A DNA stretch of 9,966 nt from the UHGV virus genome UHGV-2186022. One strand, written 5' to 3'. Each line of letters starts with the position of its first letter. Within the stretch, counting starts at the first letter, position 1. The notes beneath the pieces were generated by a model, which saw only the letters and a program-made list of their open reading frames with translations, made no database searches and was not told where the DNA came from. Origin of the DNA: a virus. A program made the position numbers and the translations under genes. Shown here one piece after another: positions 3,194 to 9,966 of the stretch.

Positions 3194-3228
3194 AGTAAGA
3201 AATTCCTCTTCGACTTAAAAAATCATAA

Positions 3229-3278
3229 CTGGATGTTCATCCAGCTCTGATTATAATCATGATTGCATTTTGTGCAAT
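3229..3278 (-). promoter_or_regulatory. candidate sigma70 promoter and operators of the head operon
   Basis: Minus-strand -10 TATAAT (rc of 3250-3255) inside a perfect 12-bp palindrome TGATTATAATCA (3248-3259). Weak -35 TTGCAC (rc of 3272-3277), 16-bp spacer. Dyad ATTGCA-N5-TGCAAT (3262-3278) overlaps the -35. Second dyad CTGGATG-TT-CATCCAG (3229-3244) lies at the predicted transcription start. Confidence 0.45.
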
Positions 3279-3354
3279 GATATTGAGTTGTGTTGCAAAT
3301 TATGAAATGATGATCCCGATCATGTGTGTCAGTGCACCAAAAAGCCTCATATGC

Positions 3355-3395
3355 AAAAGCCCGATAAGCCACCTCTGACCTTATCGGGCTTTTTT
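3355..3395. terminator. strong hairpin, likely plus-strand (possibly bidirectional) terminator
   Basis: Perfect 11-bp stem AGCCCGATAAG (3358-3368) and CTTATCGGGCT (3380-3390), 11-nt loop, then TTTTT (3391-3395) on plus; preceded by AAAA so a weaker minus-strand terminator is also possible. No plus-strand ORF upstream. Confidence 0.5.
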
Positions 3396-3504
3396 ATCTG
3401 CCTGCAAAGATGTCGAACGAAAATTAACCACAACCATCATCTTTTTTGCATCAAAACAATTAAAAACAATAAATTACGCTCATGATGATGATGACGATAA
3501 AATC

Positions 3505-3570
3505 ACAAAAATGCGCTTTTTTCCGCGCCTCCCGCCCCGTGTTCAGGCCCACCCCGCCAGGAGGACCCGT
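3505..3570 (-). other. degenerate third cos-like copy (copy C)
   Basis: Minus strand reads ACGGGTCCTCCTGGCGGGGTGGGCCTGAACACGGGGCGGGAGGCGCGG, alignable to copy B (ACGGGTCCTTTCCGG...GTTACGGGGCGGCGACCTCG) at roughly 70 percent. The cosN-equivalent 12-mer is degraded. Confidence 0.4.
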
Positions 3571-3592
3571 AAAAAAGCCGGATTGCTCCAGC
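3571..3592 (-). terminator. rho-independent terminator of the SSB-like operon
   Basis: Minus-strand hairpin GCTGGAGCAATCCGGC (3592-3577, one G-T wobble) followed by TTTTTT (3576-3571), 16 nt after the TAA of the SSB-like gene. Near-identical to the 1130-1152 terminator. Confidence 0.65.
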
Positions 3593-3608
3593 TTCTGTCA
3601 CTCGTCGC

Positions 3609-3977
3609 TTAAAACGGTATGTTATCCCCGTACGGATCATCATTCCCCGCCTGTTGTTTTGCCCTGTTCAGCGCGTCAGTAGCCTGGCCCTGTTGACCTT
3701 TTTTGCCGCCCAGTCGCGCCGTTCGCGCACTGATTACACTGTCTGCGATAACCTGCCAGCCCTGCCGCGTTTCTCCGTTCTGCCCAGTCCACTGGCTGAT
3801 CTGCATGTTACCCGCCACGCTCAGGAGTTCACCCTTGCGGTGCCTTTCCAGTGCTTCGGCCTGGCTGCACGGAAGGGGGGCCGCCATACGCGCCAGCGTC
3901 ATCGGTGTGCCCTTGCTGGTCTGTTTTACCTGCGGGTCGTCCACCAGCCGCCCGTAAGCTGCTATCTGTGCTGTCAT
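3609..3977 (-). CDS. short SSB-like protein (122 aa) with C-terminal ..DNIPF tail
   Basis: ATG at 3977-3975 with GGAGAGG SD; TAA at 3611-3609. N-terminus [25 protein letters not shown] resembles E. coli SSB [41 protein letters not shown] resembles TRKWTDQSGQDRYTTEV; C-terminus [11 protein letters not shown] resembles the SSB acidic tip DFDDDIPF. The middle of the OB fold appears shortened. Confidence 0.6.
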   Translation of the reverse strand: [122 protein letters not shown]

Positions 3978-4219
3978 GATTCCACCTCTCCGGTTTTAAC
4001 GTTGATGGTTGTCACCTGTTCCGCTTCGGCAATCTCCCGTTCTGTCAGCGTGGCAAAGTTTGCCGCTGCCGTGGTCATGAATGCGCTTACCAGTTCGGGA
4101 TGTGCTTTTGCGTACCCTTCTCCCGCGTTGCGGTCGATGATTTTTATCGCCACCCTCAGCCAGTGTTCTGTCAAATCAAGGGCGTGAGATTGTGGTTTTT
4201 TTGCGTGCTTCGTTGTCAC
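3974..4219 (-). CDS. hypothetical protein (81 aa), GTG start
   Basis: GTG at 4219-4217 with GAGG 11 nt upstream; stop overlaps the SSB-like start (ATGA). No family recognised. Confidence 0.45.
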   Translation of the reverse strand: MTTKHAKKPQSHALDLTEHWLRVAIKIIDRNAGEGYAKAHPELVSAFMTTAAANFATLTEREIAEAEQVTTINVKTGEVES

Positions 4220-4270
4220 AGGCTTTACCTCACAGCAATAAAATAAAATTTTTGCATTTTAACCCTTCAC

Positions 4271-4494
4271 CTGTTCACCTTTTGAGATTTTCCCTTTTTA
4301 TTCATAATGTTAAGGGGTGAACAGTTTCACAAAAACTATTCACCAACTGTTCACCACTGTTCACCCTTAAAGCTCAATAAATAATCAAAAAGGTGAACAG
4401 TGAATAGTTTGGTGAACAGTTCACAAATAACTGTTCACCCTATAATGTACTGATATAAAAGATATTTATAACAGGGTGAACAGTGGTGAACAGT
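4271..4494. repeat. iteron array, putative origin of replication
   Basis: Nine copies of the 9-10-bp motif GGTGAACAGT in both orientations. Forward at 4316-4325, 4392-4401, 4411-4420, 4475-4484, 4485-4494; reverse (ACTGTTCACC) at 4271-4279, 4346-4355, 4356-4365, 4431-4439. AT-rich spacers at 4281-4310 and 4441-4470. Immediately downstream of the primase stop. Confidence 0.8.
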
Positions 4495-4506
4495 TATTCC
4501 ATAAGT

Positions 4507-6321
4507 TTAATTTTTGCTGTCGTCATTTGTGACCGATGCACATGATGGCATCCAGTCTTCTGAATCCTCTGTCAGTGTCACATTTGAACGCAAACCGTGC
4601 TTCGTTTTCCGTTTTATATACTCCCTGCCATATTCCGCCATTGCCCCCGGCATATCTTTACCGAAGCGCGTCAGTGTTACAGGTTTACCGAATCCGTGTG
4701 CCCTCATATATGCCAGATAGGCGTGATAAAGATACCTGCGCGGACTGAACGGAATAATTTCGGCATTACCCACTAACAGACCATCACACATTACCGACGA
4801 CATGAGATAGCCACAGAAGTCCACCAGCGAATCGCCCTCGCGTTTTATCACCAGAGCTTCTTCTGATTTCTGCTGCTCATACAGCAGGCGTTTAGCTTCG
4901 TCCTGGTCAGAAAAACGAGTAAGCAGATGGCGAATCACAACCGCCAGCTCTCCTTCTATTTTTTCTGCCAGCATGGGGTCGCGCTCGTTCTCCGGTACAA
5001 CCTCCGAAAAATTGAATATCACCCGACGACGTGAGATCCCCCCGCTGCGGTCACTGAATGACATGGCGTTATTGTTCACCGCCAGCACGACCGCCTGAAT
5101 GCGTGTTGAGTAGGGGGCTTTATGCTTCGGGTCGATTGCCACCTTGTCACCGCCTGTAATGGCCTTAATTCCTGCGCCATCACCAGCGTAGCGGGTCATA
5201 TCCGGCATGATAATCAGCGAAAAGCCAACCACTAACGCGCGTTCCCTTGCATCTTCCAGCGCCTTCATGCTTGCCGATACTGTGTTGGCCTTACCCGCCA
5301 GCATGGTGCAAATCTCCGCCATCACGCTTTTACCACTTCCCCCTGGACCTGTTACCTCAATGAATAACTGCCAGTCGTACCGGTTCGCCAGCACCATGAA
5401 TAATGCAGCCAGCACGCGATCCGTCTTGCGGTCATTCTCTGCCACCGAGCAGCGTAACCACTTCCAGAAATTCGGCGCATGTGTTGCCAGCGTTTCCCCC
5501 TCTGCTGGTGGGCTGAAAGGTAATTCACTGGCAATTAACAACCAGTCGTTTTTGTTATGCTCCCGAAAATTACCTGTTCTGGTATCAAATACCCCGTTAC
5601 TGAATCCAATCAGGTTACGGGCTGTATTCCCCATTACAGGCAAACTTAACTTCATGGTATCGACCGCCGATTTAATGGCGTTCTGCGAATAGCTGATCTC
5701 CGCATCAATGAAAATCTGCGCCATAGCACGCTGTAACTCTTTATCCTGAATCGGCTCCCATACAACGCCGTTGTAATGGTGAACAGTGTCAGAGTCGGCA
5801 TGAATCGCCAGTTCACCGCCATAATGTGCCAGGAGAACTTCGCCGCGCTGGCTTGCTCCCATCTGGTTAAGCGCCAGTGGTGCGGCGCTGTCTTCTGTTT
5901 TTTTCTTAACAGGAAGCTGAATCACCAGACCATCAGAAAGATTCTGGCGCTCACGGGCCAGATATTCGCGCCAGTTCTGCACCTCCTGGCCGTGCATACC
6001 CTCAGGATAAAAATTTGCATCCTGTACGCCTGCCGCCGCCAGCTTCTGACCAATCGCCTTTATCATTACTGGCGCAAGATATCCGGCCCTGAATATGCGC
6101 ACGGATTTTCTGCCTTCCGGCACAATTTGCAGCTTATCCAGTTCGGATAACTGCTGCTCCCCAAGCCACACAGGAGGCTCATTATCTCCGGCCATACGCG
6201 CGTCATGTTCCTGCCATTGTTTTGCGTGTGACCAGGCATCACTACCCGCAAAAATAATGACTTCTGTTTCTTTGTGTTTTATGCCGCGTGACTGCTGTTT
6301 TACGTTCGGTGCCAGTTTCAT
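4507..6321 (-). CDS. primase-helicase, P4-alpha/D5 family C-terminal domain type (604 aa)
   Basis: ATG at 6321-6319 with AGGGGG SD; TAA at 4509-4507. Walker A GPGGSGKS within EVTGPGGSGKSVMAEICTMLAGK, and the overall layout is typical of satellite and plasmid primase-helicase proteins. Confidence 0.85.
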   Translation of the reverse strand: MKLAPNVKQQSRGIKHKETEVIIFAGSDAWSHAKQWQEHDARMAGDNEPPVWLGEQQLSELDKLQIVPEGRKSVRIFRAGYLAPVMIKAIGQKLAAAGVQDANFYPEGMHGQEVQNWREYLARERQNLSDGLVIQLPVKKKTEDSAAPLALNQMGASQRGEVLLAHYGGELAIHADSDTVHHYNGVVWEPIQDKELQRAMAQIFIDAEISYSQNAIKSAVDTMKLSLPVMGNTARNLIGFSNGVFDTRTGNFREHNKNDWLLIASELPFSPPAEGETLATHAPNFWKWLRCSVAENDRKTDRVLAALFMVLANRYDWQLFIEVTGPGGSGKSVMAEICTMLAGKANTVSASMKALEDARERALVVGFSLIIMPDMTRYAGDGAGIKAITGGDKVAIDPKHKAPYSTRIQAVVLAVNNNAMSFSDRSGGISRRRVIFNFSEVVPENERDPMLAEKIEGELAVVIRHLLTRFSDQDEAKRLLYEQQKSEEALVIKREGDSLVDFCGYLMSSVMCDGLLVGNAEIIPFSPRRYLYHAYLAYMRAHGFGKPVTLTRFGKDMPGAMAEYGREYIKRKTKHGLRSNVTLTEDSEDWMPSCASVTNDDSKN

Positions 6322-6838: not shown

Positions 6839-7067
6839 GGTGCGCCCCTTGAATATCTGCGGTAAGAATTTTGCCTGCCTCATTCAGCGCCATATCAGCA
6901 CTAAGTTGCATAACAGCCAGTGAGTGAGGAACGAAAGCCCCGGCATATTCTGTTTCGCTGGTGGCGTGCTTATGCGCCTTGTCTGCGATAACAGAAATAT
7001 CAATCAGCGCGTGCATCAGCGTTTTGATGGCTTCGGCGGCTGCGTCCGGACGGGTGTTATTGCACAT
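6831..7067 (-). CDS. hypothetical protein (78 aa)
   Basis: ATG at 7067-7065 with AGGGGG SD; TGA at 6833-6831. No family recognised. Confidence 0.55.
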   Translation of the reverse strand: MCNNTRPDAAAEAIKTLMHALIDISVIADKAHKHATSETEYAGAFVPHSLAVMQLSADMALNEAGKILTADIQGAHHA

Positions 7068-7263
7068 GGCGTACCCCCTGACGAATACGGGCAGCGAATA
7101 CCATCACGCAGCCATCAGGAGATTGCTGACGCGCTTCCTGTTCGCTGGTGGCCTCAATGGTAATCACGCGCGGTTGTGCCGTGCTCAGGGCGATAAAACG
7201 CCAGATGTATTTATTCAGGTTGTACGAGTCCCGCCCTTGCGGGTGTGTGGTATGATTTCTCAT
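7057..7263 (-). CDS. hypothetical protein (68 aa), first gene of the operon ending in the primase
   Basis: ATG at 7263-7261 with GAGG 6 nt upstream; TAA at 7059-7057. It is the 3-prime part of the 316-aa track ORF; only this part has a credible start. Confidence 0.5.
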   Translation of the reverse strand: MRNHTTHPQGRDSYNLNKYIWRFIALSTAQPRVITIEATSEQEARQQSPDGCVMVFAARIRQGVRHVQ

Positions 7264-7360
7264 AGCTGCCTCGATACTTTCGCTATCGTTGGTGGTTAGA
7301 AGCCCGTTGGTGTTGGTAGCACCTGCGGGCTTTGTCTTTTCATCGATTACCTCAACAAAG

Positions 7361-7441
7361 GTGTCAGCCACTATACTAGTAACAGGTGTCAGCCACGTCA
7401 ATAGTGTTTTTCCATTTTCTTGTGTGTATACTGTCAGCCAC
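7361..7441. promoter_or_regulatory. triple direct-repeat operator in the divergent promoter region
   Basis: GTGTCAGCCAC at 7361-7371 and 7386-7396, TGTCAGCCAC at 7432-7441. TATACT hexamers abut copy 1 (7373-7378) and copy 3 (7426-7431). Lies between divergent starts at 7263 (minus) and 7463 (plus). Confidence 0.5.
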
Positions 7442-7462
7442 CTAATAACAAGGAAATCAGAT

Positions 7463-7642
7463 ATGGCAACGAAAGCAGTTAATGGAAAATCCAAAAAACT
7501 TGAGGCACGAGTCCCCCATGCAATAGCTGACGCTGTAGAAAATTTAAAGGAAGAAGGCGAAAGCACTGGGCAATTTATCGTTTCGGCACTTGAAGGCGAG
7601 ATCAAACGCCGCCAGCGCCGCAAGGCCAAAGAGCAGGAGTAA
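7463..7642 (+). CDS. small ribbon-helix-helix-like DNA-binding protein (59 aa), candidate regulator
   Basis: ATG at 7463 with AAGGAAA SD; TAA at 7640-7642. KLEARVPHAIADAVENLKEEGESTGQFIVSALEGEIKRR fits an RHH pattern (beta-strand LEARVP, helix A, G-x-S/T loop, helix B) with a basic tail. Fold assignment is by eye. Confidence 0.55.
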   Translation: MATKAVNGKSKKLEARVPHAIADAVENLKEEGESTGQFIVSALEGEIKRRQRRKAKEQE

Positions 7643-7684
7643 CCATCACCAGCGCCGTGGTGTAAGGTATTACGGCGCATTGCT

Positions 7685-7873
7685 ATGCAGGACAACACAA
7701 TGACCGATAAAGAATTGACCAAAACATTATCACCGGCACGGAAAAGACGGCGCAGAAAGATAGAGCATGAATCAGAAAGATTCGCGCCATGTGCTTTTGC
7801 CCTTGAGCAATTCCTTAAAGAGTACAGGGAAAAGCGCTCATTGCAGGTATGGCAACGAACTGAACCAGACTGA
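7685..7873 (+). CDS. hypothetical basic protein (62 aa; alternative ATG at 7700)
   Basis: ORF with RKRRRRK basic stretch; weak SD for either start; TGA at 7871-7873; followed by a terminator. Confidence 0.35.
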   Translation: MQDNTMTDKELTKTLSPARKRRRRKIEHESERFAPCAFALEQFLKEYREKRSLQVWQRTEPD

Positions 7874-7968
7874 TTGCATTGCCCACCAGCCTGATAGCGG
7901 CTATCATCCCCGTGCTTATGTTTGGGATCATATACACATAAGGCGCAGCGGGTTAATTGTTCAGAAAG

Positions 7969-7995
7969 GCGGCTCCATATCGGGGCCGCTTTTTT
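7969..7995 (+). terminator. rho-independent terminator between convergent genes
   Basis: Stem GCGGCTCC (7969-7976) and GGGGCCGC (7982-7989), 5-nt loop, TTTTTT (7990-7995). The alpA stop is at 8022 on the other strand. Confidence 0.6.
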
Positions 7996-8021
7996 CGTGT
8001 TTGTCATATCTGTGATACCCG

Positions 8022-8228
8022 TTAAGCAGCCGTTCCGCGTGCTTCCTGTTCGCGTTCTTTCTGCCAGGCCAACACATCATCCTCATACCATCCGCGACGG
8101 CGTAAACCAACGCGAAAACCCTGCGGAAATTCTCCGGCGTTGATCATGCTTTGCAGCGTGCTGTCTGCCTTGATGTGGATAATTTTTTTTACTTCCTGGC
8201 GAAAGATAATTTTTCTGATTGCTTCCAT
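8022..8228 (-). CDS. alpA: AlpA-family phage transcriptional regulator (68 aa)
   Basis: ATG at 8228-8226 with AAGG 9 nt upstream; TAA at 8024-8022. IIFRQEVKKIIHIKADSTLQSMINAGEFPQGFRVGLRRRGWYEDDVLAWQKER fits the AlpA/Vis HTH pattern (EV..STL...I..G.FP....G.R..GW.E..V..W). Position next to a P4-type integrase is typical. Confidence 0.8.
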   Translation of the reverse strand: MEAIRKIIFRQEVKKIIHIKADSTLQSMINAGEFPQGFRVGLRRRGWYEDDVLAWQKEREQEARGTAA

Positions 8229-8724: not shown

Positions 8725-9966
8725 CTACACGGCTCGGATACCCCTTTTACCACTGGCGAGGGTTACGCCCGTCGCCGCAGCCTCGACAAATTCGCCCCAC
8801 CAGCGCATCAGCACGATGCGTTTTTCTATGTAGTTGCTCCGGTTGTATGCCCGTCTAACTTCGTTGGTGTCGACGTGGGCAAGTGCCGCCTCTATTACGT
8901 CCGGCTCGAATCCTTCCTCGTTCGCTGCTGTGCTGAATATGGCGCGTAATCCATGAGACACCAGCACGCCAGCGAATCCCATACGCCGCAATGCTGCGTT
9001 AGCTGTCTGGCTGTTCATCGGCTGCTGTGGGTCTTTCAGACTTGGGAAAACGTAATTGCGGTGGTGGCTGATTGGTTTCATGGCCTCCAGCACCGCCATA
9101 GCCTGACCGGAAAGCGGGATAACGTGATCCCTGCGCATCTTCATGCGTCCGGCAGGTATCGTCCATTGCTTCGCGTCCAGGTTGATTTCATCCCACCGCG
9201 TTGATGACGCTTCGGCGGGACGGGTTACGGTCAGTAACTGCCATTCAATCAGTAATCTGGTCTGCCGTTCTGTTGCCGATACTGATAAAGCCTGCATAAG
9301 CTCGGGCAGCTGTTCGGGGCGGATTGTTGGCATATGTTTTTTTACAGGTGAGGGAAACGCCTTACGCACATTCATAGCCGGATTGGCATCAATCAGCCCA
9401 CTGTTGGCGGCGTAATCCATTACCTCATTAACGCGCTGTAAAACCCGTTTGAGTGTTTCCAGGTTGCCGCGCTCCTTGATGGGGGTAAGCACCTCAACGA
9501 ACCTGCGAGCGGTCAGGGTGTCTATTGGGGTGTTGCCGATGAACGGGAATACATATTTATCCAGCGATCGCCAGATGTCTTTAATCGTGTTGGGGGCCAG
9601 ATTCTGGCTGATTTTCACCTGGTACCATGCCGCCGCCACATTTTCGAACGTGTTCCCTTGTCTTCGGGCCTCTGCCTCTCGTTTTTTCTTCTCATGGCCC
9701 TGCGGGTCAGTTCCGGCACTGATTAACGCTCTGTACTCGCTACGGCGTTTTCTGGCATCAGCCAGGGAAACATCATCAAGCGATCCAAAACTCAGCAATA
9801 TTCTTTTTTTGTCCGATGGCCGGTAGTAGGAAAATCGCCAGAGTTTTGATCCGGACGGTTTGACCAGGAGAAAAAGCCCTCCGCCGTCCTGTAGGGTGTA
9901 TTCCTTTTCCGCTGGTCTGGCTGCTTTGATCTGCACCGTGGTTAATGGGGGTGTTTTTCTCGCCAT
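8725..9966 (-). CDS. int: tyrosine site-specific integrase, P4 type (413 aa)
   Basis: ATG at 9966-9964 (window edge); TAG at 8727-8725. N-terminus LTTVQIKAARPAEKEYTLQDGGGLFLLVKPSGSKLWRFSYY is the characteristic P4-integrase arm-binding region. C-terminal catalytic elements present: TVTRPAEA (Arg), HGLRAIFSTAA (H-x-x-R), HVDTNEVRRAYNRSNY (Tyr region). Confidence 0.95.
   Translation of the reverse strand: MARKTPPLTTVQIKAARPAEKEYTLQDGGGLFLLVKPSGSKLWRFSYYRPSDKKRILLSFGSLDDVSLADARKRRSEYRALISAGTDPQGHEKKKREAEARRQGNTFENVAAAWYQVKISQNLAPNTIKDIWRSLDKYVFPFIGNTPIDTLTARRFVEVLTPIKERGNLETLKRVLQRVNEVMDYAANSGLIDANPAMNVRKAFPSPVKKHMPTIRPEQLPELMQALSVSATERQTRLLIEWQLLTVTRPAEASSTRWDEINLDAKQWTIPAGRMKMRRDHVIPLSGQAMAVLEAMKPISHHRNYVFPSLKDPQQPMNSQTANAALRRMGFAGVLVSHGLRAIFSTAANEEGFEPDVIEAALAHVDTNEVRRAYNRSNYIEKRIVLMRWWGEFVEAAATGVTLASGKRGIRAV

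Follow-up and report, generated by a model that had tools for sequence, protein, structure and literature searches.

Gene content of the satellite island

The window analysed here (the whole stretch of 9,966 nt, UHGV virus genome UHGV-2186022) is, judged by its gene content, an integrated E. coli phage satellite of the Gram-negative PICI type. Read along the minus strand, it carries a tyrosine integrase gene at the far end of the window (8725-9966), an AlpA-like regulator (8022-8228; a weak match, E = 0.0035, under the cut-off), a DUF4222 gene, a 604-aa primase-helicase with Pfam matches to D5_N, DUF5906 and Pox_D5 (4507-6321) that is the putative replication initiator of the island, an iteron array (4270-4495), an 81-aa gene (3974-4219), an ssb gene (3609-3977), a terminator-like hairpin (3571-3596) and the capsid and packaging genes. 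All genes between 8228 and 3609 lie on the minus strand. The integrase, the primase with its adjacent iterons, the capsid/packaging module and the chromosomal site all agree with a PICI-type element, the AlpA match being weak. The iteron array comprises approximately 12 copies of GGTGAACAG in both orientations within an AT-rich stretch (35-40% GC) between the primase gene and the 81-aa gene, and is presumed to be the replication origin from its position after the primase gene, as has been stated for PICIs (PMC10111431). The same survey lists Primase, SSB and DUF5906 as PICI replication genes that colocalize with mapped origins (PMC10111431).

The head-shell genes occupy 562-2987 on the minus strand. 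Their products are a major capsid protein of the lambda E type (351 aa), a decoration protein of the D type (111 aa), a scaffold-like protein of 137 aa that matches head maturation proteases in their C-terminal part (phrog_1999, phrog_53) and a small terminase similar to Nu1 (144 aa). The window contains neither a portal nor a large terminase gene, nor any tail genes, and its capsid module is partial in comparison with the complete module of islands L006 and L008. The stretch at 3194-3608 (415 nt, AT-rich), which separates ssb from a 68-aa gene preceding the capsid operon, contains no convincing gene; it includes a GC-rich hairpin at approximately 3357-3396 with A and T runs on its sides, and its position is held by PerC-family or ProQ/FinO genes in L006, L008, L010, L012 and L013. 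A mechanically called ORF of 316 aa at 7057-8007 (minus strand) is unlikely to be a gene. In the identical island, gene calling divides this region into a 114-aa gene (7057-7401, minus strand) and a 59-aa gene (7463-7642, plus strand), the latter occupying the position of an annotated 59-aa YlcI/YnfO family protein in related islands. No structured RNA (e.g., C4 or isrK) in the window matched Rfam at gathering thresholds.

An identical island is present between yejM/tRNA-Pro and yejO in E. coli assemblies (L003-L005), and a related island (L013; NZ_AP043606.1) is found at the same site. In L013 the integrase and major capsid genes are both interrupted by internal stop codons, and resident islands at the yejM/tRNA-Pro - yejO site therefore do decay in place. 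The closest full-length ssb relative in a complete genome (L001; NZ_CP077465.1, 2292139-2305207) is carried by an island that sits inside a prophage large-terminase gene, with terminase fragments flanking it on both sides, a 'helper-embedded PICI' arrangement that has been described previously (PMC10111431).

Just past the iteron array and the D5/P4-type primase lie the two genes with which the earlier note was concerned, and its placement of this pair beside the origin agrees with the map. The upstream 81-aa gene has a GTG start, and its TGA stop codon overlaps the ATG of ssb as ATGA at 3974-3977 (minus strand), as that note had also described; by this overlap the 81-aa gene is translationally coupled to ssb. 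A ribosome-binding site, GGAGAGGTGG, is intact a few bases upstream of the ssb ATG. A consensus scan for a sigma-70-like site on the minus strand between the origin and the 81-aa gene found none, and we infer that the two genes are co-transcribed with the primase operon or from an unrecognized promoter. Downstream, the terminator-like hairpin with its U-run (3571-3596, minus strand, located by folding) starts 13 nt past the ssb stop codon and consists of a 10-bp stem and a GCAA loop (-21.8 kcal/mol for a 58-nt stretch, z = -2.5). Its stem is maintained in L001 and L002 despite base changes, and it is not among the sites listed by a consensus scan.

The 81-aa protein belongs to phrog_1231 (E = 5e-50, positions 4-83 of 83) and has no Pfam or NCBIfam match. 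Its close relatives are all annotated as "hypothetical" and come from Enterobacteriaceae, and a profile search returned 655 distant relatives (E <= 0.001), mostly of approximately 60-130 residues among those listed. The conserved core of the family reads ID..FG.GYAK.HPELIAAFM.TAA.DF, and all 56 remote relatives sampled match phrog_1231. AlphaFold models the protein as a helical hairpin (pLDDT 64), for which a Foldseek search of the PDB gave no fold match. Annotations of L001, L002, L010, L012 and L013 show the 4-nt overlap with ssb, and islands of the L006/L011 type carry ssb without such an upstream ORF, so the pairing is common and not obligatory. Two remote members were found in islands that carry both an integrase and a primase (L014, 5001-5240; L015, 5001-5255), in one case following a DUF5906 primase and in the other an AlpA gene, and phrog_1231 therefore belongs to satellite-like islands in general. 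Two further contigs were too short to show a context, the neighbouring genes had no Pfam matches, and across these loci there was no consistent link to SSB. A tblastn search of 50,697 phage records with the 81-aa protein gave no match at E <= 1e-3, and one remote relative in phrog_1231 matched an unannotated Pseudomonas phage.

The satellite SSB family and the 54-nt deletion

The ssb gene of the window (3609-3977, minus strand) encodes 122 aa, identified from its ORF and from partial matches to SSB profiles. That the product derives from an SSB, as the earlier note had proposed, is borne out by a match to the Pfam SSB family (PF00436; 35.5 bits, cut-off 26) and by 140-aa relatives which NCBI annotates as SSB. 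The note had also suspected that part of the OB-fold core is missing, and here too the profiles agree: the PF00436 match covers residues 43-81 only, equivalent to profile positions 63-101 of 104, and the protein scores 38.9 bits against TIGR00621, below the cut-off of 53.95, whereas a 140-aa relative scores 63.9 bits, above it, over profile positions 7-135 of 165. The partial PF00436 match and the low TIGR00621 score thus indicate that the middle of the OB domain is missing from the 122-aa protein. The term "truncated" does not fit, since the difference from the 140-aa relatives is an internal in-frame deletion of 18 residues.

The full-length form is an ordinary gene of E. coli satellites. 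DNA searches found it in 1,060-1,749 of 5,426 complete E. coli genomes, where it bears the annotation "single-stranded DNA-binding protein", and in related islands it measures 423 nt (140 aa), compared with 369 nt in the window. Protein searches returned hundreds of relatives, mostly of 136-149 aa, from Escherichia, Shigella, Salmonella and Citrobacter. Solved SSB structures can be aligned with the 140-aa form over its entire OB domain, and its identity to E. coli SSB is 29%. Members of the family have one OB domain, a linker of approximately 30 residues and an acidic tip ending in ..D-x-I-P-F; the E. coli chromosomal SSB (PF00436/TIGR00621; 1EYG, 1EQQ) has a homologous OB domain and shares this tip but has a linker of approximately 60 residues. 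In the window the tip, the motif through which SSBs bind their protein partners, is encoded at 3612-3641 (minus strand), and in translation its IPF aligns with the tip of E. coli SSB. The earlier note had allowed that the IPF ending might be coincidental, but among 134 relatives nearly every complete sequence terminates in DDP[YF]xDxIPF or a closely similar motif, and by this family-wide conservation the tip is not a chance resemblance.

Compared with the PICI SSBs (NCBI WP_000126699.1 and WP_000126635.1), the window copy lies in the same place, downstream of both primase and origin and coupled to a small ORF upstream. Outside the deletion the identity is 97-99%, and the tip is shared, but the window copy is without residues 39-56. 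By these alignments the window gene is a mutated form of an already annotated member of a known family. The F-plasmid Ssb is likewise an accessory SSB of a mobile element with a host-like C-terminal tip. A phage SSB-like protein, Bas52_0087, resembles the PICI SSB in being a mobile-element SSB with a tip that binds host partners, but has two OB domains (bioRxiv 10.64898/2026.04.29.721553). We also considered that the SSB or the 81-aa protein had been borrowed from a helper phage, and rejected this because tblastn against 50,697 phage records gave no close homologue of the PICI SSB at E <= 1e-10 and none of the 81-aa protein at E <= 1e-3. The literature searched holds no characterization of the intact PICI SSB or of its coupled phrog_1231 partner.

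When the window gene is aligned with full-length genes (L001, L002, L011 and L018), one clean in-frame gap of 54 nt appears. The deletion is bounded by imperfect 10-nt direct repeats, GCAGCCAGGC and GCAGACAGGC, which lie 54 nt apart in the full-length genes. The left repeat in these genes is either GCAGCCAGGC or GCAGTCAGGC and the right one is GCAG[A/G]CAGGC, the pair being also summarized as GCAG[C/A]CAGGC. Deletion alleles retain one hybrid copy, which in the window is GCAGCCAGGC at 3859-3868 (minus strand, placed by alignment to full-length genes), and the breakpoint could be anywhere inside the shared CAGGC. An example of a k-mer that spans the junction of the deletion allele is TGCAGCCAGGCCGA. 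When 54 nt are removed at gene offsets 114-119 from the full-length L018 gene, the product differs from the 369 nt of the window gene at 4 positions, and the same operation on the L011 gene reproduces the L006 allele with 0 mismatches.

The lost residues, 39-56 of the 140-aa form, align to W40-K62 of E. coli SSB (mature numbering), a segment that forms the L23 loop and strand beta3 of that protein. W54 and F60 of E. coli SSB contact ssDNA, and H55 is the site of the tetramer-destabilizing ssb-1 mutation. The positions aligned to W54, H55 and F60 are all inside the deletion, the equivalents of W54 and F60 being W48 and F54 of the 140-aa form. Even in the full-length PICI family the equivalents of W40 and H55 are missing, with Q at the W40 position family-wide, and among the aromatic positions of ssDNA contact (W40, W54, F60 and W88 in E. 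coli) only the W88 equivalent, W63, is left in the window protein. The reading frame, the ribosome-binding site, the linker and the tip are all kept.

Recurrence of the deletion and predicted folding of its product

The exact 122-aa protein is recorded on 40 contigs (81 index blocks) from NCBI, JGI, ENA and Logan assemblies. The three loci that were retrieved with this protein are 99.96-100% identical to the window across the whole island and lie at the same chromosomal site, which points to a single origin with subsequent clonal spread. A query of 48 nt spanning the junction, which detects near-identical alleles only, matched 0 of the 5,426 complete E. coli genomes, and in the same genomes the best 40 matches to a 151-nt query across the junction all retain the extra 54 nt. 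The same deletion of 18 residues is found in three other proteins (P0033, P0035 and P0037), whose capsid-forming islands are unrelated to that of the window and have a DUF927 primase, with an HK97-type capsid, portal and large terminase in L006 and L008. These three alleles are 99.5, 98.2 and 96.9% identical to the nearest full-length gene in complete genomes. The deletion alleles are 88-95% identical to each other and differ by 0 to about 12 nt from a full-length gene, and none extends beyond a few contigs or a single clonal island.

Each deletion allele is thus nearest to a full-length gene, and the simplest reading of these comparisons is recurrent slippage at a repeat-flanked hot spot, each event being recent; very short-patch gene conversion is a possible alternative to independent slippage. 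An ancient, conserved short isoform was rejected, since the sequence closest to any deletion allele is that of a full-length gene and not of another deletion allele. Six other rare alleles (P0067, P0078, P0081, P0111, P0123 and P0147) carry different in-frame deletions within the OB domain (residues 29-44, 31-37, 32-44, 38-78, 52-60 and 91-107), four of the six falling between residues 29 and 60. Such scattered deletions are consistent with sporadic decay of a gene that goes unused as long as the island stays integrated.

The prediction of an OB fold, which the earlier note had proposed as a check, did not favour its reading. AlphaFold2 gave the 122-aa protein a mean pLDDT of 49.8 and a pTM of 0.28 from a shallow family alignment (47 sequences, at least 73% identical), a low confidence that is by itself no proof of misfolding, the 122-aa form having been modelled without a full-length control. 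The model contains strands at residues 16-19, 25-34, 51-64 and 70-83 and a helix at 37-44, and no confident OB barrel is predicted. In a Foldseek search of the PDB, SSBs ranked first but with E >= 0.02, a TM-score of approximately 0.2 and an rmsd of approximately 13 A, and there was no match at E <= 0.001. A complete five-stranded OB fold (beta1-beta2-beta3-helix-beta4-beta5) is not found in the shortened protein, the residues of the L23 loop and beta3 being gone. An OB barrel requires beta3 to bridge beta2 and beta5, and with beta3 lost the barrel cannot form normally, a topological argument that is stronger than the AlphaFold result.

Interpretation of the shortened allele

Our preferred reading, to which we give a probability of about 0.8, is that the ssb allele of the window arose by slippage from an ordinary satellite SSB gene and is probably defective, rather than a new kind of protein. 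The intact SSB of this family would coat satellite ssDNA during helper-induced replication, and its tip would recruit host replication and repair proteins. Slippage, or a microhomology-mediated deletion, between the two 10-nt imperfect repeats would have removed the 54 nt, after which the OB barrel would no longer form normally and the product would be non-functional or strongly weakened. The defective allele may persist because an integrated island is under little selection for replication. The sequences show the deletion with its repeats, its rarity, its recurrence in other islands and the conserved tip, and from there we infer the loss of ssDNA binding by the 122-aa form and the role of the intact protein. 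The intact frame, ribosome-binding site, linker and tip, the persistence of the allele in islands that otherwise look intact in dozens of assemblies, and the recurrence of the deletion would also fit a variant that is tolerated or favoured.

That the 54-nt gap is an error of assembly or sequencing and absent from the real DNA is hardly credible. The deletion does lie between short repeats, where assemblers can occasionally collapse sequence, but the exact protein occurs on 40 contigs from several assembly sources, separate assemblies gave islands that are nearly or fully identical, and a spacing of 54 nt is far below read length. A product that still works as an SSB is easier to entertain, although we consider it unlikely. 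Here beta1, beta2, the helix, beta4 and beta5 would refold as a reduced OB-like domain that binds enough ssDNA for replication, a possibility with which the retention of W63 and of the beta4-beta5 hairpin and the secondary-structure elements of the AlphaFold model agree. The strand through which beta2 and beta5 pair in an OB barrel is gone, however, together with two of the three conserved aromatic positions of DNA contact, and the model has low confidence and superposes poorly on real SSBs.

The earlier note had suggested a mini-SSB that could coat satellite ssDNA or compete with host SSB for partner proteins, and this view finds no support in the comparison with the family, whose norm is a complete protein of 136-149 aa from which the window allele departs by its 54-nt deletion. 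In the form of a decoy, the protein would have lost normal ssDNA binding while its ..DNIPF tip competes with host SSB for partners such as ExoI, RecQ, PriA or the chi subunit, or else it would escape defence systems that sense foreign SSBs, and in both cases the deletion would be favoured. The intact tip, frame and ribosome-binding site, the same deletion in four backgrounds and the spread of the allele over 40 contigs are compatible with this, and according to a preprint the DRT10 defence system is triggered by an SSB-like phage protein that has a C-terminal tip (bioRxiv 10.64898/2026.04.29.721553), which makes it plausible, without direct support, that SSB variants matter for defence. Recurrence at one site is nevertheless to be expected of a slippage hot spot between repeats, the short distance of every deletion allele from a full-length gene makes it young, the alleles are confined to a few contigs or one clonal island with none seen in 5,426 complete genomes, and the other scattered deletions of the OB core suggest decay and not design; we regard the decoy as distinctly improbable. 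A further version, in which the beta3-less allele has been selected repeatedly because, with ssDNA binding lost and the ..DNIPF tip kept, it titrates host SSB partners or spares the resident island from defences that sense foreign SSBs, is very improbable; if it were true, the repeat pair would act as a built-in on/off switch for the satellite SSB.

Reading the window gene as a probably defective slippage allele prevents a deletion mutant from being taken for a mini-SSB of a new class. The comparison further records a small mutational hot spot, formed by a 10-nt imperfect repeat at a spacing of 54 nt, in a gene present in approximately one-fifth to one-third of the complete E. coli genomes. 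Minor points worth keeping from this locus are the deletion hot spot together with the phrog_1231/SSB pair beside satellite origins, and the natural deletion allele may be used as a ready-made comparison for the function of the satellite SSB.
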